A stretch of DNA of 64,000 bases from Lentisphaerota bacterium (GTDB lineage: Bacteria; Verrucomicrobiota; Lentisphaeria; Victivallales; UBA1829). Positions 10,376-62,924 of the stretch are shown in pieces. Each line of letters starts with the position of its first letter. Position 1 is the stretch's first letter. Location: contig SUVR01000002.1 of NCBI GenBank assembly GCA_015061915.1, forward strand, positions 60,670 through 124,669, written 5' to 3'. Made by a program: the position numbers and the translations under genes. Under the pieces are notes generated by a model, which saw only the letters and a list, made by a program, of their open reading frames with translations, ran no database searches and was not told where the DNA came from.

Positions 10376-10507
10376 GCGGGACGTCAGACTACCGGAGCAA
10401 GGGGATCCTTGCTCCGGTGCTTTTTCTCCGGTGCGGCGGCAACTGCCGCACCGGAAAAAAAGCGGGCAGCGCAGGTTGCACCTGCGCTGCCCGGTCTGAC
10501 GTCCCGC
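10376..10507. repeat. closed three-hairpin palindromic intergenic element (copy 1), contains terminators
   Basis: Perfect 13-bp outer IR: 10376-10388 GCGGGACGTCAGA with 10495-10507 TCTGACGTCCCGC. It encloses three hairpins at 10391-10418, 10428-10454 and 10463-10493, separated by T5 and A7 tracts. The third hairpin plus the T-run on the minus strand is the terminator of the FrhB-like gene. Confidence 0.85.
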
Positions 10508-10520
10508 GTCAATCGGCGGA

Positions 10521-11753
10521 TCAGAAGTATTCTCTCAGGGGCATACCGCGGCGTTTACGCGCCTCGATCACCGGTCCGTTGCAGACCGGCTTACCCACAT
10601 TATGGATCTCGCAGAGGAATGCTTCGGCGTCTTCCGGGGTATCCTTCCAAAGCTTGACAGCCTTACCTTCGATAGCGGCATCAACGAACTGCTGACCGAT
10701 CTCACTGCGGACCACCACGGCGGAAACACCGTTCAGTGCAGCCTCAATACGGGGATCTGCTTTCTTCTGTTCGTCGGTATATTCATAGAGGAAGGAGGGA
10801 TGCAGCACCGGGTGATGCCAGGTATCGCCCACCACGATATCGCCGCAGCTGGCAACTTTTTCCAGACAGTAGCGACATTCTTCCGGCGTGAACTTGGCAA
10901 GCTGTCCCAGCAGGTTGTTCACGAACGGTGCAACGGCATCTTCGCCATTCTTCAGCTGCACCTTGAAGTCGCCGGGGAACGGGCGGGCGCGATAGGTCAC
11001 TTTACCAACATCTTCCAGTTTTGTTTTCAGACATTCGGTAATGAGCCATTCCGTACCGTGACGGGACCAGTGAGCGCCGCAGATATTACTGAGGACCAGC
11101 TTGATACGGCGTCCGAATTCTTCAAATTCGTTTCCCATCATCAATTTGCGGATCGCAATGGTATGGCAGGGAGTGGAAGTGATCGCCAGTTTTGTCAAAC
11201 CCTTGTCCAGCGCTTCCCGGAGACCGAGGAGCTGGGGATGGGGCTGATATTTGCTGCCGGCACCGGCAAGGACCTGTTCACGGGTCGTTGCGACAAATGC
11301 TTTTGCTTCGTAGGGGGTAGCGGGATCGAAGCCGGCGATCACGGCGCCATCGATCATCTTGTTTTCCAGAGCAAAGATCAGGAGTGCGGAGATAAAACCG
11401 CCGCTGACTGCTGCATTGTGGACTTCTTCATCCAGCGCATAGCCGGTATAGACATTGCGCCAGATCCCGGTGATGTCTTCTTTCGTACCTTTTTTTGCCG
11501 CTCTGCCGAAGAACTTTGTCTGGATCTCGGTCAGGGGAACTTTGTGTGCGGGGCAGACATTATGGCAGCGTTCGCAGTGTTCGTCGATACACTTGCCCAC
11601 CAGTTCCGGGTTGCGCCCCCAGGAATATTTTTTCAGTTCAATGGCATGACTCGGACACACCAGCTCGCAAGCACCACATTCCACACAGAGACCACTGTTG
11701 ATGCAGTTCTTCTTCAAGAGATCGAAACCTTCCTGCGACATTTTTTCCTCCAT
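10521..11753 (-). CDS. coenzyme F420 hydrogenase/dehydrogenase beta-subunit-like (FrhB family) iron-sulfur protein
   Basis: N-terminal 2x[4Fe-4S] ferredoxin motifs (CVECGACELVCP, CERCHNVCP) are followed by an FrhB/FdhB-like segment (AVSGGFISALLIFALENKMIDGAVIAG). Confidence 0.7.
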   Translation of the reverse strand: MEEKMSQEGFDLLKKNCINSGLCVECGACELVCPSHAIELKKYSWGRNPELVGKCIDEHCERCHNVCPAHKVPLTEIQTKFFGRAAKKGTKEDITGIWRNVYTGYALDEEVHNAAVSGGFISALLIFALENKMIDGAVIAGFDPATPYEAKAFVATTREQVLAGAGSKYQPHPQLLGLREALDKGLTKLAITSTPCHTIAIRKLMMGNEFEEFGRRIKLVLSNICGAHWSRHGTEWLITECLKTKLEDVGKVTYRARPFPGDFKVQLKNGEDAVAPFVNNLLGQLAKFTPEECRYCLEKVASCGDIVVGDTWHHPVLHPSFLYEYTDEQKKADPRIEAALNGVSAVVVRSEIGQQFVDAAIEGKAVKLWKDTPEDAEAFLCEIHNVGKPVCNGPVIEARKRRGMPLREYF

Positions 11754-12723: not shown

Positions 12724-13149
12724 ATGGACAACAACTTTTACAATCAACTGAGAGAATTTTTGAACACAAAAGATCACTTCTGCAAAGAAAACGGGATGCA
12801 GATCCTTTCCATCAGCGAAGGGTGCGCTGAAGCAGAAATGATCGTGACAGAACACCATCTGAACGGGATGCGATCCGTACAGGGCGGCGCCCTTTTTACC
12901 CTTGCCGATTTTGCGTGCGCCGCGGCGATCAATTCCTTCGGGATGGCAGCAGTCAGTATGTCCGCCAGTGTGTCTTTCATCCGACCGGGGATCAATATGA
13001 AACGCATGACCGCCGTTGCAAAGCTTGTCAACAAGGGCAAAACCACCGCTGTTCTGGATGTGGATGTCATCGGCGAAAACGGGAAGATCCTTCTTCATTC
13101 CATGATGACCGGACATCTTTCTGATAAACCGCTGAGCGATTTCTTCTGA
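12724..13149 (+). CDS. PaaI-family hotdog-fold thioesterase
   Basis: 141 aa with a motif typical of PaaI/4HBT thioesterases (NGMRSVQGGALFTLADFACAAAI). The start lies 2 nt after the AraC stop. Confidence 0.75.
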   Translation: MDNNFYNQLREFLNTKDHFCKENGMQILSISEGCAEAEMIVTEHHLNGMRSVQGGALFTLADFACAAAINSFGMAAVSMSASVSFIRPGINMKRMTAVAKLVNKGKTTAVLDVDVIGENGKILLHSMMTGHLSDKPLSDFF

Positions 13150-13176
13150 TCAACAGACTTCCCCGCAGGAACATAA

Positions 13177-13351
13177 GCCCCGCAACGGGGATGCCGCCGC
13201 TTTTGTTTTTTGTGCGCCACAGAGCGCTCAAAAAACAAAAAAACGCCCTGCATTAAAAAAGCGCACCTCCACTGGTGCGCTTTTTTAATGCAGGGCGGGC
13301 GCCGGTCGCGCTTTCAGCGCGAGCGGCTGCGGCATCCCCGTCTTGTGGGGC
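13177..13351. repeat. closed three-hairpin palindromic intergenic element (copy 2), contains bidirectional terminator
   Basis: Imperfect outer stem 13177-13200 with 13323-13351 (12-bp perfect core CGGGGATGCCGC/GCGGCATCCCCG). It encloses hairpins at 13201-13240, 13244-13297 and 13306-13322. The 13244-13297 hairpin has a perfect 24-bp stem whose inner part is A6-GCGCACC...GGTGCGC-T6. Confidence 0.85.
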
Positions 13352-14398
13352 TTACTGTTCCGGACTGACACCGGCACCGAAAGAATCGATGTTCTGCAGG
13401 TACACGCCGGTACCTCTGGCAACCGCCAGAAGGGGGTCTTCCGCCACAAAGCAGTTCAGATTCATTTCCTCGGCAATGAGTTTATCCAGTCCCTTCAGCA
13501 GTGCACCACCGCCGGCAAGGAAAATCCCGTGATCACTCAAGTCGCCGCAGAGTTCCGGCGGACAGCGTTCCAATGTTGTCCGGACAGCCTCCACAATGCT
13601 TGTGACCGGTTCCAGGAGCCAACTGCGCACTTCCCGTGAAGTGATCTTGACCACTTTCGGCAGACCGGAAACAAGGTCGCGTCCTTTGATTTCCATTTCC
13701 GTTTCGCCGTTTTCGTCCGGGTAAACATTACCGATAGTGATCTTGATATCTTCCGCAGTCCGTTCACCGATCATCAGGTTGTAAACCCGCTTTACATTGC
13801 TGATGATCGCAAGGTCCATTTCATCACCGCCGACACGTACGCTGCGGCTGTCCACGATCCCGGCAAGGGAGATAATTGCCACTTCCGTAGTTCCGCCGCC
13901 GATATCCACGATCATGCTGCCGACGGGATCTTCAACAGGCAATCCGATCCCGATCGCAGCAGCCATCGGTTCTTCCAGCAGGATAACTTCACTCGCACCG
14001 GCATGAGTTGCCGTATCCTGCACGGCGCTTGTTTCCACTTCCGTGATCCCGGTGGGAACAGCGATCACGATACGGGGCTTTGCCAGGCGGCGGCGGGGAG
14101 AAACATATTTTTTTGCTTTTTCGATAAAGTAGCGGAGCATATGGCGGGTGATATTGATGTCAGCGATCACCCCGTCTTTCATCGGGCGGATCGCAGCAAT
14201 CGATCCCGGCGTTCTGCCGAGCATCATTTTTGCATCGACCCCGACAGCCAACACGCCGCCGGTGACCTTATTGATCGCCACAACGGAGGGTTCAGAAAGA
14301 ACAACACCTCTGTCCTTCACATATACCAGGCAGTTTGCCGTCCCGAGGTCGATCCCGATGTCGCTGGAAAAAAATCTTGCAAGCTTTTGATGTAACAT
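13352..14398 (-). CDS. mreB: rod shape-determining protein MreB
   Basis: 348 aa. Actin-like ATPase motifs DIGIDLGTANCLVYV and DIGGGTTEVAIISL, with a typical MreB C-terminus. Confidence 0.95.
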   Translation of the reverse strand: MLHQKLARFFSSDIGIDLGTANCLVYVKDRGVVLSEPSVVAINKVTGGVLAVGVDAKMMLGRTPGSIAAIRPMKDGVIADINITRHMLRYFIEKAKKYVSPRRRLAKPRIVIAVPTGITEVETSAVQDTATHAGASEVILLEEPMAAAIGIGLPVEDPVGSMIVDIGGGTTEVAIISLAGIVDSRSVRVGGDEMDLAIISNVKRVYNLMIGERTAEDIKITIGNVYPDENGETEMEIKGRDLVSGLPKVVKITSREVRSWLLEPVTSIVEAVRTTLERCPPELCGDLSDHGIFLAGGGALLKGLDKLIAEEMNLNCFVAEDPLLAVARGTGVYLQNIDSFGAGVSPEQ

Positions 14399-18049: not shown

Positions 18050-18157
18050 ATGGGCAGACAGTACAACAAGTACGAAAAAAGAGCACGCCGTAAACACTAC
18101 CTTCAGCGCGTGAAAGAAAGAATCAAAGAAGCGATCAAGAATGCAAAAAAGAAATAA
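18050..18157 (+). CDS. small highly basic protein (35 aa), hypothetical
   Basis: The ATG at 18050 is preceded by ACAGGAG with 8-nt spacing. Product: MGRQYNKYEKRARRKHYLQRVKERIKEAIKNAKKK. An AT-rich promoter-like region lies upstream. The longer track ORF (start 17966) lacks an RBS. Confidence 0.4.
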   Translation: MGRQYNKYEKRARRKHYLQRVKERIKEAIKNAKKK

Positions 18158-18297
18158 TTGATCTTTTCACAAGCTTCCGGTTGCCGGCAAACGGTAACCG
18201 GCGGCGGTTGTTGTTTGTATGACCGCCGGAACGGGGCGGTTCGGAAGCGGATCGCCCCTTTACTCTTTAAAACAGGACATCATTCAAGGAGCCTGCT

Positions 18298-19175: not shown

Positions 19176-20340
19176 ACAAAAATTGCAATCCGCAATGATC
19201 GAAAGGACACTGAAGCGACAACGAACATCTGCGATATCGGTCGGTCCGGGCGCCATAACCGGAAGCGGGGCGGCTGATCGGAGCGGAGGCAAAAGAGCGG
19301 CTTTCATCCGCCTCCACGGTCTGTTCGATCAATATCTGCCAATCACCTTCGGCATAAGAACCGGGCAGGAACGGCAGATTTTCAACAGCATCATGTCTGC
19401 ATTCGTACTGCACATGAATCGGCAGAGGTTCATCGGACCGGGCGATTATCCTGCGGGAAACATTCCGGATCGTCCGACGCCAACTGGACGAACAGACTTC
19501 CAGTTCGCTGTAAGAAACGCCATCACCAAAGAAATTTCCGTCTGCATCCCCGGTATATTCTGTCTTCCGGCGACGAACTTCTGTATAATTGTTTCCGGTC
19601 GTACTTTCTTCTGTCCGGTCCCACGCGGCTTCTTCACTGAGTGTTCCGCTTCCGGAAACGCCGTTCAGATTCCATTCTTTTCTGGAAGGACAGGATCGGA
19701 GCAAGAAATTCCGCTCGGCTCCAGTATATTCAACCAGCTGAAATGAAGCATCAATCTCCTGCAGGGGAATGGTTAATTTTTTCAGGAGTTGCTGTATTCC
19801 GAACATCCAGTCACCAAGCAAAGTCAAATTGGCAGCATCCGGCAGGAAGACGGGAAAGGACGGGATCAGTTCCCCGGCAGTATAACATTCTGCATAAAGG
19901 ATGATCCGTACATCCTCCGGACCGGTCAAATCTCCCTCCCGGTTCATCTGCAGGTTCAAACATCCCGCCTTAAAGGAAAGTTTACCGGCTTCAAACTCAT
20001 CTGTAAAATCTTCCAGCGGAACCTGCATCCAAGTTTTGTAAAAACCATCCTGCGTCCGTAAGGTGAGTTTCCGGATCTTCCCCTCCTCCACAGCAACAAA
20101 ATAAGGCAGGATCCGCTTCAGTTTATCGCTGATGATCCGCACGGCACCTGCGATACTGTAAAGATTTCCGAAGGGCTTTTCCAAGGTCTGTACCGGTTCA
20201 CCGCACAGTTTGCAGCGTTCCAGCACCGCCAGACGGATCGCCTCCAGGCGTTTGCAGATTGAATCGCCGCACAGGGCGGCACGGTTCTCCCAGCTGCCGT
20301 AATCTTCCCAACAGCGGGCTGTGTTTTCATTTTCGTTCAT
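19174..20340 (-). CDS. hypothetical protein (no recognisable family)
   Basis: The ATG at 20340 is preceded by AAAGGAGAG. 388 aa with no signal peptide or TM segment. The N-terminal region has several cysteines (CWEDYG...CGDSIC...CKLCGEP). Confidence 0.5.
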   Translation of the reverse strand: MNENENTARCWEDYGSWENRAALCGDSICKRLEAIRLAVLERCKLCGEPVQTLEKPFGNLYSIAGAVRIISDKLKRILPYFVAVEEGKIRKLTLRTQDGFYKTWMQVPLEDFTDEFEAGKLSFKAGCLNLQMNREGDLTGPEDVRIILYAECYTAGELIPSFPVFLPDAANLTLLGDWMFGIQQLLKKLTIPLQEIDASFQLVEYTGAERNFLLRSCPSRKEWNLNGVSGSGTLSEEAAWDRTEESTTGNNYTEVRRRKTEYTGDADGNFFGDGVSYSELEVCSSSWRRTIRNVSRRIIARSDEPLPIHVQYECRHDAVENLPFLPGSYAEGDWQILIEQTVEADESRSFASAPISRPASGYGARTDRYRRCSLSLQCPFDHCGLQFL

Positions 20341-20380
20341 CGGCTCTCCTTTCCATTTTTCAAGAGGCAGAGCGTCAAAC

Positions 20381-20409
20381 AAAAAAAGGTGCCCCGTTTC
20401 CGAAGCACC
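20381..20409 (-). terminator. intrinsic terminator of guaA
   Basis: On the minus strand, GGUGCUUCG-GAAA-CGGGGCACC is followed by U7 (A-run 20381-20387 on the plus strand). Confidence 0.75.
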
Positions 20410-20430
20410 TTGAAAAGCCGTTCGTTCAGC

Positions 20431-21735
20431 TTATTCCCACTCGATCGTTCCGGGGGGCTTGCCGGTGATGTCGTACACCACCCGGTTCACGCCTTCCACT
20501 TCCTTCACGATGCGGTTGGACATCTTGAAGAGCAGTTCCCAGGGCAGTTCCACCACATCGGCAGTAACTGCGTCAACGGAGTTAATGGAGCGGATGGCGA
20601 TCACGTGTTCATAAGTCCGCTTGCCGTCTTTCATACCGACCGACTTGACCGGCACGAAGATGGCAAAAGTCTGCCAGGTCTTGGCATACCAGCCGGAGTT
20701 GTGCAGTTCTTCCGTCACGATGTTGTCCGCATCCTGCAGCATACGGAGCGTTTCGCGCTTGATGGCGCCCACATGGCGGACACCCAGTCCCGGTCCGGGG
20801 AACGGATGACGATCCAGCATCACAGAGGGCAGACCGAGGATGCGACCAACTTCGCGGACTTCGTCCTTAAAGAGGCGTTCCACCGGTTCCACCAGCTGGA
20901 ACTTCAGATCTTCCGGCAGACCACCCACATTGTGATGGCTCTTGATCACGCTTTCCGGATTGCCGTCCAGCGGAATGCTTTCCAGAATATCCGGGTAGAT
21001 CGTTCCCTGACCGAGGAACGGCGCATTGGTAGCAGCTGCCGCTTCCGCAAAGACATCGATAAATTCCTTACCGATGATCTTGCGTTTCCGTTCGGGTTCT
21101 TCCACGCCGGCAAGTTTATCCAGGAAGCGGTCCGTGGCATCCACATAGACCAGCTTCATCTTGAACGTATCTTCAAAGATCTGACGGACCATTTCCGGTT
21201 CGTGCTTGCGGAGGAGACCGTGATTGACAAAGACGCAGGTCAGGCGGTCACCGATCGCTTTGTGGATCAGGGCAGCCACCACACTGGAGTCAACGCCGCC
21301 GCTCAAGCCGAGAACGACCGTCTGATCGCCCACCTGAGCGCGGATATCAGCAACAGCTTCTTCCACGAAATTTTCCATGGTCCAGGAACCGGTGCAGGCA
21401 CAATCTTTCATACAGAAATCACAGACTTCCGCCACATCCAGATCATCTTTTGCGTTCGCTTTCTTCACGCCGGGAAGCATATCCGCTGCGGCATTGACAG
21501 CGATCTTCGGCATATCCAACGCCTGAAATTTTGCCAGTTGCGCCGCCACTTTATCACATGCAGCATCTGCCACAAAAATCAAGCCGGAAGGCGCTTCTTC
21601 CATGACTCTTTCCGCAGTAACCGTGTAGGGCATCACCATAGTGTAGATGTGATGGGAGCGGATTGCCCGTGCGAACTTCTGAACACCTGCACATCCACAG
21701 TTGATCAGAACGATCGTTTCTTTTGTTCTTTTCAT
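20431..21735 (-). CDS. guaA: GMP synthase with truncated/degenerate glutamine amidotransferase domain
   Basis: ATP-pyrophosphatase P-loop VVLGLSGGVDSSV, a dimerisation domain and the canonical C-terminus ...GKPPGTIEWE are present. The N-terminal domain is only about 125 aa and lacks the G-x-C-x-G nucleophile and the HPE motif. The ATG at 21735 has an AAGGAG upstream. The track start at 21774 is a TTG. Confidence 0.85.
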   Translation of the reverse strand: MKRTKETIVLINCGCAGVQKFARAIRSHHIYTMVMPYTVTAERVMEEAPSGLIFVADAACDKVAAQLAKFQALDMPKIAVNAAADMLPGVKKANAKDDLDVAEVCDFCMKDCACTGSWTMENFVEEAVADIRAQVGDQTVVLGLSGGVDSSVVAALIHKAIGDRLTCVFVNHGLLRKHEPEMVRQIFEDTFKMKLVYVDATDRFLDKLAGVEEPERKRKIIGKEFIDVFAEAAAATNAPFLGQGTIYPDILESIPLDGNPESVIKSHHNVGGLPEDLKFQLVEPVERLFKDEVREVGRILGLPSVMLDRHPFPGPGLGVRHVGAIKRETLRMLQDADNIVTEELHNSGWYAKTWQTFAIFVPVKSVGMKDGKRTYEHVIAIRSINSVDAVTADVVELPWELLFKMSNRIVKEVEGVNRVVYDITGKPPGTIEWE

Positions 21736-21777
21736 CTTCCGTTTATACTCCTTATGAGTTGAGATGTCATTCAAAAA

Positions 21778-22923
21778 TCACAAGACCCGTGCGCCATCCC
21801 CGATCCCGCAGATCAGGGTTTCCGCCACCTTGCCGGTCATGGTCTTGTAAGCCGTTTTCAGGCGCTCGCAGTATTGTTCCGCCTGATCCGATTCCACCAG
21901 ATGGATGCTGATCCCGCCGAAACCGCCGCCGGAAAGTCTTGCACCTGCGCAACCGGGGAGCGTCTTGGCGATCTCCACCAGCGCATCCAGTTCGGTACAG
22001 CTGTTTTCAAACATATCCCGGCTGCTTTCATGGCTGGCAAAAAGCAGCGCGCCGAACGCCCGAATGTCACCGGCTTCCAACAGTTTCACGCCCTGCATGA
22101 CCCGTTCGTCCTCGCCGACAACGTGTTTGGCACGCTTCCAGTCGGTAATATCCATATCGTCTTTGCAGCTTTCCAACATAGCAGAATCCACATCCCGCAA
22201 TGCCTTGACAGCAGGATATTTTTTCTGGATGGCGGCAAGGGCATTTTCACAGCTCTGACGGCGCAGGTTGTAATCCGATTCCACCAGATTATGTTTTACC
22301 ATCGTGTTGGCTACGACCATACTCCAACCGGCAGGCATGGAAACCGTTTTCAGCACTTCCACGGTGCGGAAGTCACAGAGGATCAGGGAATCTTTTTTGC
22401 CGTAGAGGGAGCTGAACTGGTCCAGCAGACCGGATTTCAAGCCCATGAAATTGTTTTCGACGCCCTGCCCTGCCCGCGCCCAATCCGGCAGGGAAAGTTC
22501 GATCTTGAAGATCGTCTTCAGGGCAAAGCCGAACGCCATCTCCAGTGCGGCGCTGCTGCTCATTCCGGCAGACAGGGGAACAGTGCTGCTCAGTTCCGCA
22601 TTGAATGCGCCGATTTTGGCGCCGCGTTTCTGCAGTTCCAGGATCAAACCTTTGAGATAGTTCCGCCAGTCGCCCTTGACATAGGTGGTAAGATCGTTCA
22701 GATCCAGCGTGCAGTCCTTGCCGTTTTCATGAATGGTGCAGACTGTGCCTTCCACGGGGGACATGGAAACGGTTGTCGCCCGGTCGACTGCGGTGCTGAG
22801 GACGAATCCTTCATTGTAGTCGGTATGATTTCCCAGGACTTCCAGTCGTCCGGGAGCAATCGCACAAACGGCGGGAAGTGCGCCGAAACGGGCTTTGAAC
22901 GCTTCAATATTGGCGTTGGACAT
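21778..22923 (-). CDS. galK: galactokinase
   Basis: GHMP kinase with the galactokinase signature GRLEVLGNHTDYNEGFVL and the ATP motif PLSAGMSSSAALE. Confidence 0.9.
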   Translation of the reverse strand: MSNANIEAFKARFGALPAVCAIAPGRLEVLGNHTDYNEGFVLSTAVDRATTVSMSPVEGTVCTIHENGKDCTLDLNDLTTYVKGDWRNYLKGLILELQKRGAKIGAFNAELSSTVPLSAGMSSSAALEMAFGFALKTIFKIELSLPDWARAGQGVENNFMGLKSGLLDQFSSLYGKKDSLILCDFRTVEVLKTVSMPAGWSMVVANTMVKHNLVESDYNLRRQSCENALAAIQKKYPAVKALRDVDSAMLESCKDDMDITDWKRAKHVVGEDERVMQGVKLLEAGDIRAFGALLFASHESSRDMFENSCTELDALVEIAKTLPGCAGARLSGGGFGGISIHLVESDQAEQYCERLKTAYKTMTGKVAETLICGIGDGARVL

Positions 22924-24252: not shown

Positions 24253-25446
24253 TTATGATATTCTGACGCCTGCGATCCCTTTCAGGTAGAAACCTTCAGG
24301 GAAAGTTGCAGCTACAGGGTGGTCCGGTCCCTGTGCCATCCGGGCAAAGATCCGGAAGTCGCATTTTGCGTCGGCAGCGGCAGAATCCACCACTTTGGTA
24401 AAGAGATCGCCATCCATGGCGCCGGAGCAGGAAAAGGTAAAAAGTTTTCCACCCGGACGGAGCAGTTTCATCGCAAGCAGATTGATATCCTTGTATCCCC
24501 TGGCGGCTTTTTCCCGCTGGGCGGCGGTATCGGCAAATTTCGGGGGATCCAGCACGATCAGATCGAAGGTCCGGCGGGAATCCCGGCACTTACGGAGGAA
24601 CTGGAACACATCCGCCACCTGCGTGCCGAACTGTTCTTCTGTGAAGCCGTTTGCTTCCGCATTTTTCCGGGCGATCGCAAGAGCATCGGCGCTGGCGTCG
24701 ATGTTCAACACCCGTTTTGCACCACCGGCAAGTGCGGCAAGCCCGAAACCACCTGTATAGGAGAAACAGTTGAGAGCATCCTCCGCTCCGGCGGCAGCTT
24801 CCATTACCGTCTTCCGGCTGATCCGCTGATCCAGATAAAAGCCGGTCTTGTGACCATTGCGGGGATCGGCAGAAAACCGGATCCCGTTCTCTGTAAACTG
24901 GAAAAATTCCGGAGGCTCCTCTCCGGCAAGCAATCCGGTACGGAAGGAAAGTCCATCCCGGAGCCGGCTCTCCACATCCGACCGCTCGTAAACAGAACGG
25001 GGAGCATACTTGAGAAGCAGTTTTGCAATCACATCCCGGAAGCGGTCCATACCGGCACCGGTGATCTGGCAGACGCAGCAATCGTTGTAAACATCCGCCA
25101 CCAATCCCGGCAAACCATCGGATTCCGCATTGACCAGCCGGTAAGCATCCGGCAGGACACCGTTGAAGACCGTTTTCCGGTACAAAAACGCCTGTTCCAG
25201 TTTCCGCTCAAAGAAAGAGGCGTCGATTTTTTCCGCTTCGTTTCCGAAGGACCAGATCTTCACGGGGATGGCAGAATCCGGCGAACAGGCACCCCAGGCA
25301 AGAAAGTTTCCTTCAGAATCCACCACCCGGACGGTATCACCGGTCTTTCCGGAAAGTTTTTTCAGCGCCCCGGAAAAAATCCACGGATGTCCCCGCAAAA
25401 TTGATTTTTCCCGTCCCTGCTTCAGAACAGCAAGAGCCTCACTCAT
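24253..25446 (-). CDS. rlmI: class I SAM-dependent 23S rRNA (cytosine-C5) methyltransferase, RlmI-like
   Basis: PUA-like N-terminus (GHPWIFSGAL) with SAM-MTase motifs VLNCFSYTGGFGLAA and VLDPPKFA. The ATG at 25446 overlaps the upstream stop (AATGAGTGA). The track start at 25500 is less likely. Confidence 0.75.
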   Translation of the reverse strand: MSEALAVLKQGREKSILRGHPWIFSGALKKLSGKTGDTVRVVDSEGNFLAWGACSPDSAIPVKIWSFGNEAEKIDASFFERKLEQAFLYRKTVFNGVLPDAYRLVNAESDGLPGLVADVYNDCCVCQITGAGMDRFRDVIAKLLLKYAPRSVYERSDVESRLRDGLSFRTGLLAGEEPPEFFQFTENGIRFSADPRNGHKTGFYLDQRISRKTVMEAAAGAEDALNCFSYTGGFGLAALAGGAKRVLNIDASADALAIARKNAEANGFTEEQFGTQVADVFQFLRKCRDSRRTFDLIVLDPPKFADTAAQREKAARGYKDINLLAMKLLRPGGKLFTFSCSGAMDGDLFTKVVDSAAADAKCDFRIFARMAQGPDHPVAATFPEGFYLKGIAGVRIS

Positions 25447-36218: not shown

Positions 36219-37598
36219 TCAGCGCACGGTGTTACTGATCTTGTTTTTGATGATGGGGGCAAGAACAGGACGGAATCCCACGCCGTTATTCTTTTCGTTC
36301 TGCGGCATATAAAGGCGGGATGCACTGCGGAGTTTTTCCGGAGAACAGCACCAATTTCCGCCACGGACAACTTTGCAAGGGATCTCACGCACAACGGACC
36401 GGGCATCAAAGTTCTTCAGTTGTTCATAAGTCACTGCTACCGGTCTGGTATTACATGGATTCTTCCGGTCCGGTGCATTCTGCAAAATCATATAAGTATT
36501 CGGCGCATAGAAATCATAACACCATTCGGCAATATTTCCGGACATATCATAAACGCCCCAGGCATTGGGCTTGAACTTTCCTGCGGGAGATGCCACTTCA
36601 TATCCATCGGAAAGAGCGACTCCCGGCTGGTTCACATTATCCCACCCGAAAGCCTTTCCGCTTTTCAGATCCAGACTGTTGGCGTACTTTGCTCCTTCTT
36701 CTCCAAATTCATTTCCCCAGTAATAATCGGTGGTACTCCCTGCCCGGCAGACATATTCCCATTCTGCTTCGGTAGGAAGACGGTACTCATAACCTTCGGG
36801 AATCCTGCCCAGTTTCCGCTCCTGATCCGTCAAGGTCTTGCAGTAATACACGGCTTCGTCCCAGCTGACTTCACCGGCAGGCAGGTCGTTGGCATTCAGA
36901 TTGCGGCTGTTCCATTCCTTCATGAAGTGAGAGGGCGTCAGACGGCGGAGCTGCCGGTTCGTGATCTCATATTTTGAGATCCAGAAAGGTCTGGTGATGG
37001 TAACTTCCACGCAGGGTGTTTCACTCCGGACCGCAAGATCCCGGCTGTCTCCCATCAGAAATTTGCCTTCTTTGATGGGGACCATGTCCAGCATTGCAGT
37101 CGATGCCACAAAGGGACGGTGATCAATGGGAGAGGATTCCAGCATAACTTTCCGGTAATCCCGGATTTTTTCTTCCATTTTCTCCCGCAGTTCGGGATAA
37201 TTCCGTTTGATGGAAAAATTGATCAGATTTTCTGCGATCCGGGTTGCTTCCGCAGCATTGACGGCGGCAGTATAGATCTTCTCCGGATTTTCCTTGCTGA
37301 AGGTCGCTTCCAGCGCAGCCAGTTTTTCACCGGTCACTGCGATGTACTGTTCATCTGCCTTCTTACTGTCACAGTAGGAATAGATTGCATATCCCACGCC
37401 CAGCACCACAAAAAATCCAAGCAGAACCATGATCCGCTTGAAGATCCGCTGTTTTGCCTCTTCGTGCTGAAGAATTGTCAGTTGACCGGGATCGACTTTG
37501 CTCCGCCGTGCGCCGTGAAGTTTTCTCACTTCTTCGATCCCGGAGGGCAGCCGTTCCGGGCTTTTCTTTTTCCGCTGTTTTGCAGTTTTTTCTTCCAT
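36219..37598 (-). CDS. membrane-anchored formylglycine-generating-enzyme (FGE/SUMF1)-family protein
   Basis: Lys-rich N-terminus, one TM helix (IMVLLGFFVVLGVGYAIYSY), then FGE-sulfatase domain motifs (MVPIKEGKFLMGD, EAEWEYVCRAG, GNIAEWCYD, VVRGGNWC, GFRPV). The start is uncertain: the ATG at 37598 has the better RBS spacing, and 37604 is also possible. Confidence 0.75.
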   Translation of the reverse strand: MEEKTAKQRKKKSPERLPSGIEEVRKLHGARRSKVDPGQLTILQHEEAKQRIFKRIMVLLGFFVVLGVGYAIYSYCDSKKADEQYIAVTGEKLAALEATFSKENPEKIYTAAVNAAEATRIAENLINFSIKRNYPELREKMEEKIRDYRKVMLESSPIDHRPFVASTAMLDMVPIKEGKFLMGDSRDLAVRSETPCVEVTITRPFWISKYEITNRQLRRLTPSHFMKEWNSRNLNANDLPAGEVSWDEAVYYCKTLTDQERKLGRIPEGYEYRLPTEAEWEYVCRAGSTTDYYWGNEFGEEGAKYANSLDLKSGKAFGWDNVNQPGVALSDGYEVASPAGKFKPNAWGVYDMSGNIAEWCYDFYAPNTYMILQNAPDRKNPCNTRPVAVTYEQLKNFDARSVVREIPCKVVRGGNWCCSPEKLRSASRLYMPQNEKNNGVGFRPVLAPIIKNKISNTVR

Positions 37599-43821: not shown

Positions 43822-43949
43822 GCGGAACGGCGCAGTCGCCGGAGCAACGCTCCGGCATACCGCCCACAAAAAAAAGCGCAGGCAAAAACGCCTGCGCTTT
43901 TTCTGTGGAGCGGCGGCAGCCCCTGCGGGGCTGGACTGCGCCGTTCCGC
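43822..43949. repeat. closed three-hairpin palindromic intergenic element (copy 3), contains bidirectional terminator
   Basis: Perfect 16-bp outer IR 43822-43837 GCGGAACGGCGCAGTC with 43934-43949 GACTGCGCCGTTCCGC. It encloses hairpins at 43838-43856, 43860-43913 (core A8-GCGCAGGC...GCCTGCGC-T5) and 43917-43933. Confidence 0.85.
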
Positions 43950-46459: not shown

Positions 46460-47307
46460 TTCACATAGCCTCCATTCATTGCTGCTGCAAAAGCACGCAT
46501 TGCATCTTCGGCAGCTCCCGGTTCATGGACTCGCACAAATTCAACTTTTTTCTCCGTCAGATATGCCAACACTCCTGCTGTGGCAAAATCGCGTTCACAC
46601 GGCTTTTTTTCTCTGCCGAGAAAGGATTTCCGTGAAATCCCATAGTACAATGGCAACCCGTGTTTCCGGAACTGTTCCGCATCCCGGACCAACTGCCAGT
46701 TTGCCGTGACAGTCTTCGCAAACCCGACACCCGGATCCAGTGTGATCCGGTCACGCCGGATCCCTGCCCCGACCGCAAGATCAATCTGCTTCTCAAAGAA
46801 TGAATTGATCTCTCCGATCAGATCCTGATAGAGAAGATTCTCCTCATTCTGCATCGTCTCCGGCGTCCCACGCATATGCATTAACACCAGACCGGCATCA
46901 TATTTTGCAATCACTTGTGCCATATCCGGATCAAATTGCAGTCCGCTGACATCATTGATCACATCTGCGCCGGCATCCAAAACGGCTTCCGCCACGGCTG
47001 CTTTCCGCGTATCCACGCAGATCACGCAGTCCGGCTGCCGTTCCCGCAAGGACCGGATCACCGGCACGAGCCGTTCAATCTCGGTCTGCACCGGTTGAGC
47101 GGCAGCTCCAGGCCGGGTGGATTCCGCTCCGATGTCGATCGCATCGGCACCGGAACTCAACATCTCTTCTGCGTGAGCCACAGCGCCTTCCACCGTCCGG
47201 TACGCGCCGCCATCGCTGAACGAGTCATCCGTCAGGTTCAGGATCCCGATGATTTTCGGGACCCCGCTGCCCGACGTTGCAAAGAACCGGTCAGTCCTGC
47301 GCATCAT
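46456..47307 (-). CDS. folP: dihydropteroate synthase
   Basis: GILNLTDDSFSDGG, DIGAESTRPGA and VINDVSG motifs. The likely start is ATG-ATG at 47307/47304, which overlaps the gyrA 3' end by about 17 nt. The track start at 47391 is probably too long. Confidence 0.88.
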   Translation of the reverse strand: MMRRTDRFFATSGSGVPKIIGILNLTDDSFSDGGAYRTVEGAVAHAEEMLSSGADAIDIGAESTRPGAAAQPVQTEIERLVPVIRSLRERQPDCVICVDTRKAAVAEAVLDAGADVINDVSGLQFDPDMAQVIAKYDAGLVLMHMRGTPETMQNEENLLYQDLIGEINSFFEKQIDLAVGAGIRRDRITLDPGVGFAKTVTANWQLVRDAEQFRKHGLPLYYGISRKSFLGREKKPCERDFATAGVLAYLTEKKVEFVRVHEPGAAEDAMRAFAAAMNGGYVK

Positions 47308-50029: not shown

Positions 50030-50171
50030 GTTTTTCCTTCCTTACGGGTTATATTTTTGTTTTGCTATTTTTAATATTATAGATAATATACACCCGTGCG
50101 CGCGACCGCGCAAGCGCGAAAAACATAAGGATGACAAAAAAAATGAAAAAAAATCAGCCGTCCGATACCGC

Positions 50172-50309
50172 GAGGCGCAGCGCAGCCCTTTTTTTTGCTG
50201 CGGCGACAGCGCCGCAGCAAAAAAACGCCTCCGCTTGCAGAACAGATTGCTGTTCTGCAAGCGGAGGCGGCACCGGAGCCAAGCTCCGGTGCGGGCTGCG
50301 CCGCGCCTC
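50172..50309. repeat. closed three-hairpin palindromic intergenic element (copy 4), contains dnaJ terminator
   Basis: 17-bp outer IR (1 mismatch) 50172-50188 GAGGCGCAGCGCAGCCC with 50293-50309 GGGCTGCGCCGCGCCTC. It encloses T8-hairpin-A7 (50189-50225), a perfect 20-bp stem (50226-50269) and GCACCGGAGC-caa-GCTCCGGTGC (50270-50292). Confidence 0.85.
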
Positions 50310-60389: not shown

Positions 60390-62924
60390 ATGGCGATCAT
60401 CGGTAAAATAGAACGGAAAAGCTGGAAAGTGATCCTGTTGAGTGTGGTGATCCACCTGATCCTGATTCTGGGGGCAGCGACTATGGTCTATCCCCTGCTT
60501 CTGATGCTTTCCGGATCAGTCAAAAGTTCCGTCGACTTCAAAAACTTCACCCTCTTTCCTGAATACCTGCTCACAGAAAGCGATGGTCAGGAACTGCTGT
60601 TCAAAAAGTATCTGGCTACAAAGTATAACAACCAAGTTCTGCGTATGGCAGGCGATTTCAAAGATCCCGGTGCCACCTTTGATACCGTCGCGCCTCCATT
60701 CCGGAAAAATCAGGTGCGGCGTACTGCAGACTATCAGGATTTTCTGGCGGAATGTAAAAAAGAACTGCCGCATTACTGGTTCCTGCTCGGAATGGCATAC
60801 GAACCCGGGATAGACCCGCTTTCCCTGCGTAATTTCCGGGCATTTCTGCAAGACGGCCGGACCGATACCAACCGGGCGCTGCGTGAGCTGAACGAGGCGT
60901 GTAATACACAGTTCACCGATTGGAACGAAATCTCACTGCCGGCAGAAAACTTTTTCCTGCGGCGGAATTCCGGAGATTACAGTTCCGGTCTGCTGAAAAG
61001 GCTCCACGAATTCAAGTACAGCAGGCATACAGGATTGCTGGTCGAGATCTGGCCGGATATGGAGGGTGATTTCATTGCAATGCTGCGGCGGGACTGCGGC
61101 AGAAGTCTTGAGTCGATCAATCAATCTCTGCAAACGGATTACAATTCCTGGAAGGAGATCATTCTTCCGGAAAAAGTTCCGGCGGAAAATCCATTGCTTG
61201 CAGCCCGCTGGGAAGAATTTGTCAAAAACGAAATCAACGCTGCCTTTATCACGGTCGAACCCCGTCTTGCACTTGCTCCCTGGCGACACTTCCTGAAGGA
61301 AAAATATGGCGACCTCGCCACACTGAACAAGTCGCACGGCACGCAATATACCGATTGGAACAATATCCCGTTCAGCAACAATGTACCCCAATCCGGGATC
61401 CTGCGGATCGATTGGATGGATTTTGTCAGCGGTAATTCCACGCATAAAAAAATGTGGCATGATTTTCTGAAGAAAAAATATGCGAACCGTATCAGTAATC
61501 TGAACACAGAATGGGGTACGGGATTCCGTACCTTCGGCGAAATACCGTTCCATAATTCCCGAAGCGATAATGAGGCAGAAAACCGGGCAGCCGCAGAACT
61601 GGATGAATTGATCCGCCGCAACCGGAAGAAAGAGATCCCCGCAGAAGCGATCACGCTTCATACGCTGGCGAACCGGTACCGGGCATGGCTGAAAAACCAT
61701 TACTCCGGCAGTCTCGGAGCAGTGGCGAACGCGTACGGCATGGGCTGTAATACATTCCAGGAAGTAACATTGCAGGGAACTGCACCCGGTGAAAATAATC
61801 TGGCAGAACATTCAGACTGGCTGGAATTTCTGCGCACTCTGCCGCCGGAAAAGATCGGACTCCTCCGCAGCGCCGCCGGAAACTACCGGCAATATCTCCG
61901 GGATCTGTACACAAAAGATGGGGTCTGCGATTTTGATGCGATGAGCCGGGATTACGGCAAAACGATCACCGGTGAAAACAACATTCCCATCCACCTGGTC
62001 TGCCCGCCTTCCGGCAAGGCTCGCACCGACTATCTTCATGCGATCCGTAACGATCTCCTTCCCGGTCAATATGTTCTGCCGGATCCGCAAAAATACAGTT
62101 CGGACTGGCATTCTTTTCTGGAGAAAAAGTATGTCAATATCCGGGAACTGAACCGGAAATGGCGTCTCATTCCCCGGACTTTTAACGACTTTTCCCTGCC
62201 GACCCGGGAACACGAATGGCAGCTGTTGCAGGAAAATGCCGCCTTCCTGCGAAATGAATACTTGACCAGGAATTACAAAATGGTCTTCAGTACCCTGTTC
62301 ACCAACGGTAATGCGGCAGTCAATACATTGATCTATTGTCTGCTTTCGGTTCTGGCGGCACTGCTGATCAATCCGCTTTGTGCATACGGACTTTCCCGTT
62401 ACAAACCGGCTTCATCCTATAAGATCCTGCTCTTCCTTATGCTGCCGATGGCGTTTCCTGCCATGGTGCTGGGAATTCCGCAATTTCTGCTGATCCGGGA
62501 TTTGGGACTGCTCAATACCTTCGCCGCCCTGATCCTGCCGGGAATCGCAAACGGATATTCCATCTTTCTGCTCAAGGGATTTTTTGACAGCCTTCCGAAG
62601 GAGTTGTACGAATCCGCCGCCATCGACGGAGCCGGCGAATGGACCGTTTTCTGGCAGATCGGGATGCGCCTTTCCACACCGGTTCTGGCAGTCATTGCAC
62701 TGGGCTCCTTCACCGCCGCTTACGGCAATTTTATGATGGCATTCCTGCTCTGCCAGAAAAAAGATATGTGGACGATGATGGTCTATCTCTACCAACTGCA
62801 GCAGACCTCTTCCCCGGCAGTGGGATTCGCCGCCCTGGCAATCGCCGCGATCCCCACGCTGATCGTGTTCATCTTCTGTCAGAACATCATTATCAAAGGG
62901 ATCGTTGTCCCCACCGAAAAATAA
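60390..62924 (+). CDS. MalG-like ABC permease with ~585-aa repeat-containing extracytoplasmic insertion
   Basis: 844 aa. TM1 at residues about 12-40 (VYPLLLMLSGSVKS). The MalG-type core lies only in the last ~215 aa (ESAAIDGAGEWTVFWQIGMRLSTPV). Residues about 45-630 contain eight copies of an aromatic-x2-aromatic-L...Y...LN...I.(L/F)P module. Confidence 0.8.
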   Translation: MAIIGKIERKSWKVILLSVVIHLILILGAATMVYPLLLMLSGSVKSSVDFKNFTLFPEYLLTESDGQELLFKKYLATKYNNQVLRMAGDFKDPGATFDTVAPPFRKNQVRRTADYQDFLAECKKELPHYWFLLGMAYEPGIDPLSLRNFRAFLQDGRTDTNRALRELNEACNTQFTDWNEISLPAENFFLRRNSGDYSSGLLKRLHEFKYSRHTGLLVEIWPDMEGDFIAMLRRDCGRSLESINQSLQTDYNSWKEIILPEKVPAENPLLAARWEEFVKNEINAAFITVEPRLALAPWRHFLKEKYGDLATLNKSHGTQYTDWNNIPFSNNVPQSGILRIDWMDFVSGNSTHKKMWHDFLKKKYANRISNLNTEWGTGFRTFGEIPFHNSRSDNEAENRAAAELDELIRRNRKKEIPAEAITLHTLANRYRAWLKNHYSGSLGAVANAYGMGCNTFQEVTLQGTAPGENNLAEHSDWLEFLRTLPPEKIGLLRSAAGNYRQYLRDLYTKDGVCDFDAMSRDYGKTITGENNIPIHLVCPPSGKARTDYLHAIRNDLLPGQYVLPDPQKYSSDWHSFLEKKYVNIRELNRKWRLIPRTFNDFSLPTREHEWQLLQENAAFLRNEYLTRNYKMVFSTLFTNGNAAVNTLIYCLLSVLAALLINPLCAYGLSRYKPASSYKILLFLMLPMAFPAMVLGIPQFLLIRDLGLLNTFAALILPGIANGYSIFLLKGFFDSLPKELYESAAIDGAGEWTVFWQIGMRLSTPVLAVIALGSFTAAYGNFMMAFLLCQKKDMWTMMVYLYQLQQTSSPAVGFAALAIAAIPTLIVFIFCQNIIIKGIVVPTEK

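Follow-up and report, generated by a model that had tools for sequence, protein, structure and literature searches.

A closed three-hairpin palindrome between a paaI-like gene and mreB in a gut Lentisphaeria bacterium belongs to a class of gene-end elements defined by fold

Bidirectional intrinsic terminators consist of a GC-rich hairpin between an A-tract and a T-tract, lie just 3′ of stop codons and are symmetric with respect to strand. The REP, BIME and REPIN palindromes of Proteobacteria are extragenic and are also found at gene 3′ ends, often between convergent genes; REP-type palindromes have been implicated in transcription attenuation, mRNA stabilisation and the binding of nucleoid proteins (PMC4550694). 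In a gut Lentisphaeria bacterium, the 202-nt spacer that separates a paaI-like gene from a convergent mreB gene shares these general properties. It lies in a stretch of 64,000 nt (assembly GCA_015061915.1, contig SUVR01000002.1, forward-strand positions 60,670 to 124,669), referred to here as the window, and nearly all of it is one nested palindrome in which a closing stem surrounds three hairpins. In contrast to bidirectional terminators, the core here lies inside a perfect helix of 24 bp, next to two further hairpins and within a closing stem that measures 14-28 bp across the elements of the window. REPs form sequence families of hundreds of near-identical copies mobilised by RAYT transposases, whereas the loci described below have no sequence in common and form a closed junction. 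These elements are a lineage-specific class defined by fold, not by sequence. With moderate confidence they are read here as composite bidirectional intrinsic terminators whose nested perfect palindromy would arise and persist through template switching; the extra hairpins and the closing stem perhaps provide a fail-safe or insulating fold.

When positions 13150-13360 of the window were folded by minimum free energy on both strands and compared with dinucleotide shuffles, the plus strand reached -140.6 kcal/mol against -72.3 +/- 4.5 kcal/mol for the shuffles (z = -15.2) and the minus strand -138.3 kcal/mol (z = -12.9); DNA energy parameters gave z = -16.9. The minimum free energy fold is a closing stem round three hairpins on both strands, which bears out the closed architecture proposed in the initial annotation for 13177-13351, and an inverted-repeat search recovered in place every pairing listed there. 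Hairpin 1 (13201-13240) has arms of 17 nt (13201-13217 and 13224-13240) with one T.T mismatch, a GCGC core, a T-run on the 5′ side and an A-run on the 3′ side. Hairpin 2 (13244-13297) has arms of 24 nt (13244-13267 and 13274-13297) that are 100% complementary and enclose a 6-nt loop. Hairpin 3 (13301-13327) is GC-rich and closes on a triloop, TCGCGCT-TTC-AGCGCGA (13306-13312 and 13316-13322), lengthened by GCCG/CGGC to a 12-nt repeat (13301-13312 and 13316-13327).

The closing stem comprises 28 pairs in the fold, between 13170-13197 and 13329-13359, interrupted by two small bulges. Its core is a long-range inverted repeat of 16 nt at 94% (13185-13200 and 13326-13341) that is extended by 13174-13185 and 13343-13354. 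The right outer arm had been thought to end one nucleotide before the mreB stop codon. The stem is in fact longer, and this arm first abuts and then overlaps the stop: the 3′ arm (13329-13359) covers the stop codon (13352-13354) and five coding bases, and the 5′ arm (13170-13197) carries the mreB 3′ end in inverted form (GGAACA-TAAG), together with a small local hairpin, CCCCG-CAA-CGGGG. The inverted duplicate of the last mreB codons and stop lies within the closing stem at 13170-13179 and 13350-13359 and contains one bulge. The flanking genes are a PaaI-family (4HBT) thioesterase gene on the plus strand (12724-13149), whose stop codon (13147-13149) is 20 nt ahead of the closing stem, and the convergent mreB gene on the minus strand (13352-14398). 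An assembly artefact was ruled out, the element being present in independent JGI, ENA and NCBI assemblies; JGI contig Ga0257076_10000102 matches the window at 100% identity.

The inner part of hairpin 2 (13255-13286) reads A6-GCGCACC-loop-GGTGCGC-T6, with the plus-strand T6 at 13281-13286. It thus has the canonical form of the bidirectional terminator that had been recognised in it, and to judge from its sequence may act as one. Read in the paaI sense, GCGCACC-loop-GGTGCGC is followed by T6; in the mreB sense the mirror image of the same core appears, and the full 24-bp hairpin 2 then runs into T7GT6, a tract supplied by the A-rich arm of hairpin 1 as it reads on the minus strand. A scan with a consensus terminator called terminator-like combinations of hairpin and T-run inside this element and inside the one at 10376-10507 described below. 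On the minus strand of the paaI-mreB element it found a 20-pair stem (13294-13247) followed by GCGTTTTTTT, and the terminator-like sites on that strand carry the tails GCGTTTTTTT, GGCGTTTTTT and TTTTTTGTTT. The element therefore presents a GC-rich stem-loop followed by a T-tract just 3′ of stop codons, as intrinsic terminators do. Other 3′ spacers in the window bear ordinary A/T-flanked single-hairpin terminators, from which it follows that this genome uses intrinsic termination.

The paaI-mreB spacer is not alone. A 160-nt sliding fold of the whole window gave a mean of -44.9 kcal/mol (standard deviation 9.9) and four outliers only, of -108 to -126 kcal/mol, at 10376-10507 (copy 1), 13177-13351 (copy 2), 43822-43949 (copy 3) and 50172-50309 (copy 4). 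All four are built of a 14-28 bp closing stem round three hairpins, with almost all junction bases paired, and on the plus strand the order is the same throughout: a first hairpin, the longest hairpin (18-24 bp) and a short GC hairpin with a triloop. Copy 1 lies between the stop of an FrhB-like gene on the minus strand and the next minus-strand gene, copy 3 between a convergent pair formed by a 746-aa gene of unknown function (plus strand) and a cupin gene (minus strand), and copy 4 between the dnaJ stop (minus strand) and the gyrA promoter. Copy 4 has the topology and module order of copy 2, in agreement with the initial annotation. The term "copies", also taken from that annotation, holds for topology and module order; as a designation of a repeated sequence family or of an insertion it does not hold, there being neither homology between the loci nor a target-site duplication. 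In a blastn-short search the four elements showed no significant similarity to one another or to the rest of the 64 kb, the sole notable common string being a 12-nt junction sequence, AAAAAAACGCC(C), present in copies 2 and 4. Both recurrence in the absence of shared sequence and the perfection of the stems would be explained if the arms served as templates for each other, which would give loci with wholly different sequences perfect stems alike.

The terminator signature recurs with the fold at the other loci of the window. In copy 1 a GC hairpin is followed by a T-run on both strands. The central hairpin of copy 3 has the core A8-GCGCAGGC / GCCTGCGC-T5, and A5 and T4 flank its closing stem. 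In copy 4, read in the dnaJ sense, a 20-bp hairpin is directly followed by T7. Two further elements were found in relatives: one between convergent genes of a more distant species (L127, 14948-15080), and one after dnaJ (L145, 9691-9840) in a species with 81% GyrA identity, whose sequence can no longer be aligned with copy 4. Copy 2, copy 4 and the L145 element have a grammar in common in the sense of the upstream gene, namely a closing arm, the short GC hairpin with its triloop, a long perfect hairpin with ...GGCG at its end, T7, an A-run and the other closing arm; in copy 4 and L145 the T7 doubles as the 5′ arm of the next hairpin, the A-run being the 3′ arm of that hairpin. Each of the six independent loci starts about 0-30 nt from a stop codon, at the ends of convergent or co-directional units.

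The distance from copy 4 to the gyrA promoter region downstream of it is about 140 bp. The region upstream of gyrA (50030-50170 in the window and 9841-10000 in L145; CGCGCTTGCGCG ... GGGTGTATATTA) is conserved at 81% GyrA identity, the adjoining element being not alignable, and is a probable promoter/operator block of gyrA judging by its sequence.

A non-autonomous mobile element of the MITE (miniature inverted-repeat transposable element), REPIN or BIME type, inserted next to mreB, would account for the closing stem as terminal inverted repeats, for the intergenic position at gene ends and for the presence/absence polymorphism among strains that is described below. This origin is highly improbable. 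None of the four elements is similar in sequence to another or to anything elsewhere in the window, none has a target-site duplication or other direct repeat at its borders, no empty site was seen in relatives, and the elements are orthologous and syntenic in a sister species. The many copies of a conserved palindrome unit that characterise REPs are likewise lacking within the 64-kb window, and a scan of viral contigs with the hairpin 2 arm gave no match.

The paaI-mreB element is present in the window (L001), in L003 and in the sister species L126 (GCA_965348535.1); in L003 an inserted GCC makes the closing stem more perfect. Synteny is the same in L126, the flanking genes are 84-87% identical in DNA, and orthologous elements occur at both of the sites checked (copies 1 and 2). 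Orthologs of copy 1 were found in L002, L143 and L126, and copy 4 is identical throughout in four strains with identical DnaJ.

These orthologs indicate how the arms change. An alignment of copy 2 with L126 by MAFFT and RNAalifold was too poor for structure, and edit distances between arms were used instead, helix by helix. For copies 1 and 2 together, the window and L126 are 38 edits apart in their 5′ arms and 37 edits apart in their 3′ arms. Arms compared with the complement of their own partner differ by 11 edits in the window and by 9 in L126, most of them in the bulged closing stem of copy 2. Relative to the window, hairpin 2 of L126 shows a T>G change, a 1-nt deletion, a C>T change and an apical insertion, all of which are mirrored in the opposite arm so that 23 of 23 pairs are perfect. 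The closing stem of L126 has a different sequence and is 29 bp long; 11 bp of it are the mreB coding end and stop (CGGAACAGTAA / TTACTGTTCCG), the inverted duplicate of the mreB end being perfect over 11 bp (10441-10451 and 10603-10613).

For copy 1 an alignment of the window, L002, L143 and L126 was used. In it 97.8% of the cells are paired and each of the four helices, the closing stem included, contains one double change (AU>GC, AU>UA, CG>GC and GC>UA); the observed counts were reached in 2 of 500 shuffles, and sliding the partners by 1-3 columns gave none. The double changes in copy 2 are TA>GC, CG>TA and GC>CG, together with mirrored indels. Since L126 keeps a closing stem of different sequence and the helices of copy 1 all show a compensatory double change, the outer stem is not fortuitous. 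The initial annotation had allowed for a fortuitous pairing should relatives have only the central hairpin between unrelated flanks; no such pattern was found in the orthologs.

Over nine elements, G-U pairs make up only 9 of 564 (1.6%), and both strands fold equally well. Most of the double changes are of the transversion type or are mirrored 1-nt indels, and pass through no wobble intermediate. Mirrored changes and the paucity of G-U pairs fit arm-to-arm templating in replication better than stepwise compensation in RNA. Template switching is known to create and repair perfect stems and to introduce multi-base compensatory changes in a single event (PMC8794818). The likeness extends to perfect stems, one-step compensation of several bases and outward growth of inverted repeats; the published work concerns single stems in RNA genes, whereas here a multi-helix architecture at terminators is involved and the link is drawn from substitution patterns only (PMC8794818). 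If template switching between the arms during replication (quasipalindrome correction) both made the near-perfect Watson-Crick arms and kept them at the DNA level, the differences between orthologs would be expected to be mirrored transversions and indels, and a closing stem grown to take in an inverted mreB 3′ end would also be explained. At the level of strains the picture is mixed: single-nucleotide polymorphisms (SNPs) break pairs in L143 and L129, one SNP perfects a pair in L002, and L137 has concerted multi-base changes at hairpin tips.

The same mechanism could act without selection on anything but the terminator. In a neutral accretion of palindromes only the terminator hairpins would be functional, and the remainder would be by-products of template switching that grow outward from existing hairpins and are tolerated for want of constraint on the spacer. 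The perfect Watson-Crick arms with almost no G-U and equal stability on both strands, the inverted mreB 3′ end in the closing stem, the dispensability of the element in sister strains, the pair-breaking SNPs in L143 and L129 and the documented mechanism (PMC8794818) all speak for it. Accretion of this kind should, however, yield variable topologies, and all six loci show three inner hairpins, linkers of near-zero length and a closing stem. The architecture is moreover kept at orthologous sites with 84-87% gene identity and at dnaJ-gyrA at 81% GyrA identity, and nothing comparable was found in 937 kb of other bacteria, which likewise have terminators and template switching. A purely neutral origin is accordingly considered unlikely.

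The 937 kb comprised 365 kb from distant relatives (FrhB-like protein at no more than 68% identity) and 572 kb from diverse bacteria, and a fixed topology filter was applied whose thresholds were three or more simple hairpins with a minimum of 7 bp each, 10 bp or more in the closing stem and no less than 80% of bases in pairs. The filter returned 0 matches in the 937 kb against 5 in 173 kb of the window and close relatives (Lentisphaeria/Victivallales metagenome-assembled genomes, MAGs). Copies 2 and 4 and the L126 ortholog of copy 2 were missed by the filter and found by direct folding, probably because the 160-nt frame is too short for copy 2 and because of bulges in some of the closing stems. 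Energy outliers were rare in the 937 kb and consisted of single long inverted repeats and one loose multi-hairpin. None of the FrhB-like relatives at up to 68% identity had a comparable element. Among the matches listed for MreB, the best were 66-68% identical (Verrucomicrobiota, Lentisphaerae and Kiritimatiellia) and yielded no orthologous spacers; their loci were reused as background for the fold scans. The only vague likeness in the 937 kb is a structure in a Verrucomicrobiota MAG (L014, 18361-18520), possibly a MITE, where four hairpins are loosely arranged within an 18-bp outer stem (-93 kcal/mol, z = -5.6).

A fold that is conserved, with covariation in every helix, could also point to a functional structured RNA. 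The junction would then act in read-through or independent transcripts as a stabiliser in the 3′ untranslated region, a processing signal or a protein-binding non-coding RNA, for example as a substrate of RNase III through its perfect helices of 20-25 bp. The compact junction of four helices, its extreme stability and its position always directly 3′ of coding sequence are in keeping with such a role. Structured RNAs are typically far richer in G-U pairs than the 1.6% seen here, and asymmetry between the strands is absent. The loops are not conserved, the sequences are unrelated between loci, and the inner terminators should halt most transcripts before the 3′ arm is reached. In Rfam there were 0 matches in the window at gathering thresholds, and the best matches below threshold were unspecific ones to hairpins or terminators, with scores under half the gathering value (e.g., MIR7486, 29.7 against 67); ARAGORN found no tRNA or tmRNA in the window, the stems of the elements being 7-28 bp long. 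A scan found no promoter-like site beside copies 1 or 2. In favour of an RNA, REP-derived RNAs of E. coli with two or more hairpins bind HU (PMC4550694). On balance a dedicated RNA function appears improbable.

Some close relatives lack the element as a whole. It is absent from the paaI-mreB spacer of three other species (PaaI 90%, 79% and 77% identical), where the spacers are 105, 22 and 118 nt long and contain simple hairpins or none. It is also absent from a sub-lineage of the same species represented by nine contigs from several samples (L002 and L136-L143). The spacer of this sub-lineage (allele B; L002, 4049-4256) is an unrelated sequence of 208-214 nt that is weakly structured and contains a single ordinary terminator, oriented in the mreB sense. 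Its flanks are about 98% identical to those of the element-bearing allele and the breakpoints fall at the two stop codons. The suggestion in the initial annotation that the element might be an insertion is not upheld by this comparison of the orthologous region, which revealed no empty site; the spacer has instead been replaced from stop to stop by unrelated DNA of similar length. Import of the spacer by recombination from a divergent donor was ruled out, as SNP density is not raised beside the breakpoints. The allele B spacer matched none of the sequences examined and its source was not found among them. It is bounded by a 10-nt direct repeat, TTTCTTCTGA, of which one copy is the paaI 3′ end including the stop and the other lies 5 nt before the mreB stop; this looks like a target-site duplication or a microhomology junction.

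A second dimorphism exists at dnaJ-gyrA in another species. L145 has the element, and L146 and L147, with flanks 98% identical, have about 850 nt of unrelated DNA beginning at the dnaJ stop. The insert (L146, 9012-9865; L147, 4165-5018) contains GGTCGGACAG in six tandem copies and has direct repeats of about 65 bp at both ends. The same repeat occurs in another spacer of the same genome (L145, 19749-20134), and the insert is a MITE-like repeat family that took the place of the closed element. The whole spacer thus behaves as a dispensable, replaceable cassette.

Breakpoints that coincide exactly with stop codons, at two loci and in two species and with no rise in flank divergence, may be taken to indicate that the element is a site in DNA. 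A branched cruciform or folded single-stranded DNA would then be bound by a protein that recognises junctions or hairpins, and would serve nucleoid organisation, the buffering of supercoils by promoters such as that of gyrA, which copy 4 adjoins, or recombination leading to the exchange of spacers. Watson-Crick symmetry, which is strict on either strand, and the strongly negative z-score under DNA parameters agree with this. Convergent-gene spacers gather positive and not negative supercoils, and a branched cruciform with short arms is costly to extrude. No candidate protein was identified, and the element is absent from sister strains without visible consequence. A role as a DNA site is therefore judged distinctly improbable. 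Among known sites of this nature, the attC sites of integrons are defined by their fold, recognised as single-stranded DNA, located at the 3′ ends of open reading frames (ORFs) and linked to cassette exchange. An attC site is a single imperfect hairpin with conserved R and L boxes and extrahelical bases, and occurs in arrays next to an integrase gene. The present elements have instead perfect stems, a four-way junction and housekeeping neighbours (mreB, dnaJ and gyrA). No integrase was seen in the regions examined; the attC R/L box consensus was not scanned for.

On a stronger reading, precise swapping from stop to stop would point to an activity in this Lentisphaeria clade that is dedicated to junction recognition or recombination, and not to ordinary terminator evolution. 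A new class of element would then be at hand, fold-only, with a closing stem and exactly three hairpins, arms that template each other and a spacer exchanged as a precise cassette; this stronger proposal is rather unlikely. No description of such elements was found in the literature searched or in Rfam. Intrinsic terminators, extragenic palindromes and maintenance by template switching are all known, and it is the recurrent, sequence-free four-way junction and the cassette-like turnover that were not found described.

The reading as a composite bidirectional terminator kept perfect by template switching has its own difficulties. Unlike ordinary bidirectional terminators, the L127 element lacks a T-run after any of its inner hairpins and shows, on one strand, no more than TATTTT behind the closing stem, so that the fold is conserved more consistently than the terminator signature. 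The closing stem and the constant number of three hairpins are unexplained by simple termination, because transcripts that end at the inner T-runs never hold the 3′ closing arm. Bidirectional symmetry is not called for in copies 1 and 4, which occupy co-directional gaps. Strains with an unrelated spacer are common and the element is therefore not essential. Finally, the independent loci number only six, and each comparison of orthologs draws on two to four sequences. From these data we infer actual termination, the template-switch mechanism and any role of the closing stem. Together with the accessory hairpins, this stem might fold read-through RNA or single-stranded DNA into a compact four-way junction, which could serve as a fail-safe block or an insulator between transcription units.

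Several other structures were noted in the course of the analysis. Three tandem hairpins of 10, 10 and 11 bp (18177-18259, z = -6.25) lack a closing stem and sit between convergent genes, a tiny basic ORF on the plus strand (18051-18157) and a minus-strand gene with its stop at 18280; the closed elements perhaps have an "open" relative here. The other long inverted repeats of the window are ordinary (62647-62760, z = -2.2; 25221-25385, z = +0.5). Two long gaps in a crude ORF map (36978-37453 and 46460-47290) have no unusual structure and probably represent genes that the longest-ORF heuristic overlooked, not true spacers. Three independent metagenomic contigs stop inside copy 2 or copy 1 (L003 at its end, 4151; L137 and L138 at their starts), and the palindromes, or their heterogeneity among strains, appear to break short-read assemblies. 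A related species without a closed element in 22.7 kb (L144) has a type I-C CRISPR-Cas locus (Cas3, Cas5d and Csd1) at 19298-22754.

If the reading of these elements as composite terminators is correct, terminators in this clade have been built into multi-helix junctions by template switching, one arm being copied from the other. They would then provide a natural test case for the origin and upkeep of perfect RNA or DNA helices without slow compensatory evolution, and would be candidates for very strong, insulated bidirectional terminators. The finding would also mean that families of elements exist which are defined by fold and free of common sequence, and which repeat finders and covariance-model libraries overlook. 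Replacement of whole 3′ spacers at stop codons, at the level of strains, bears on the turnover of intergenic DNA in bacteria.

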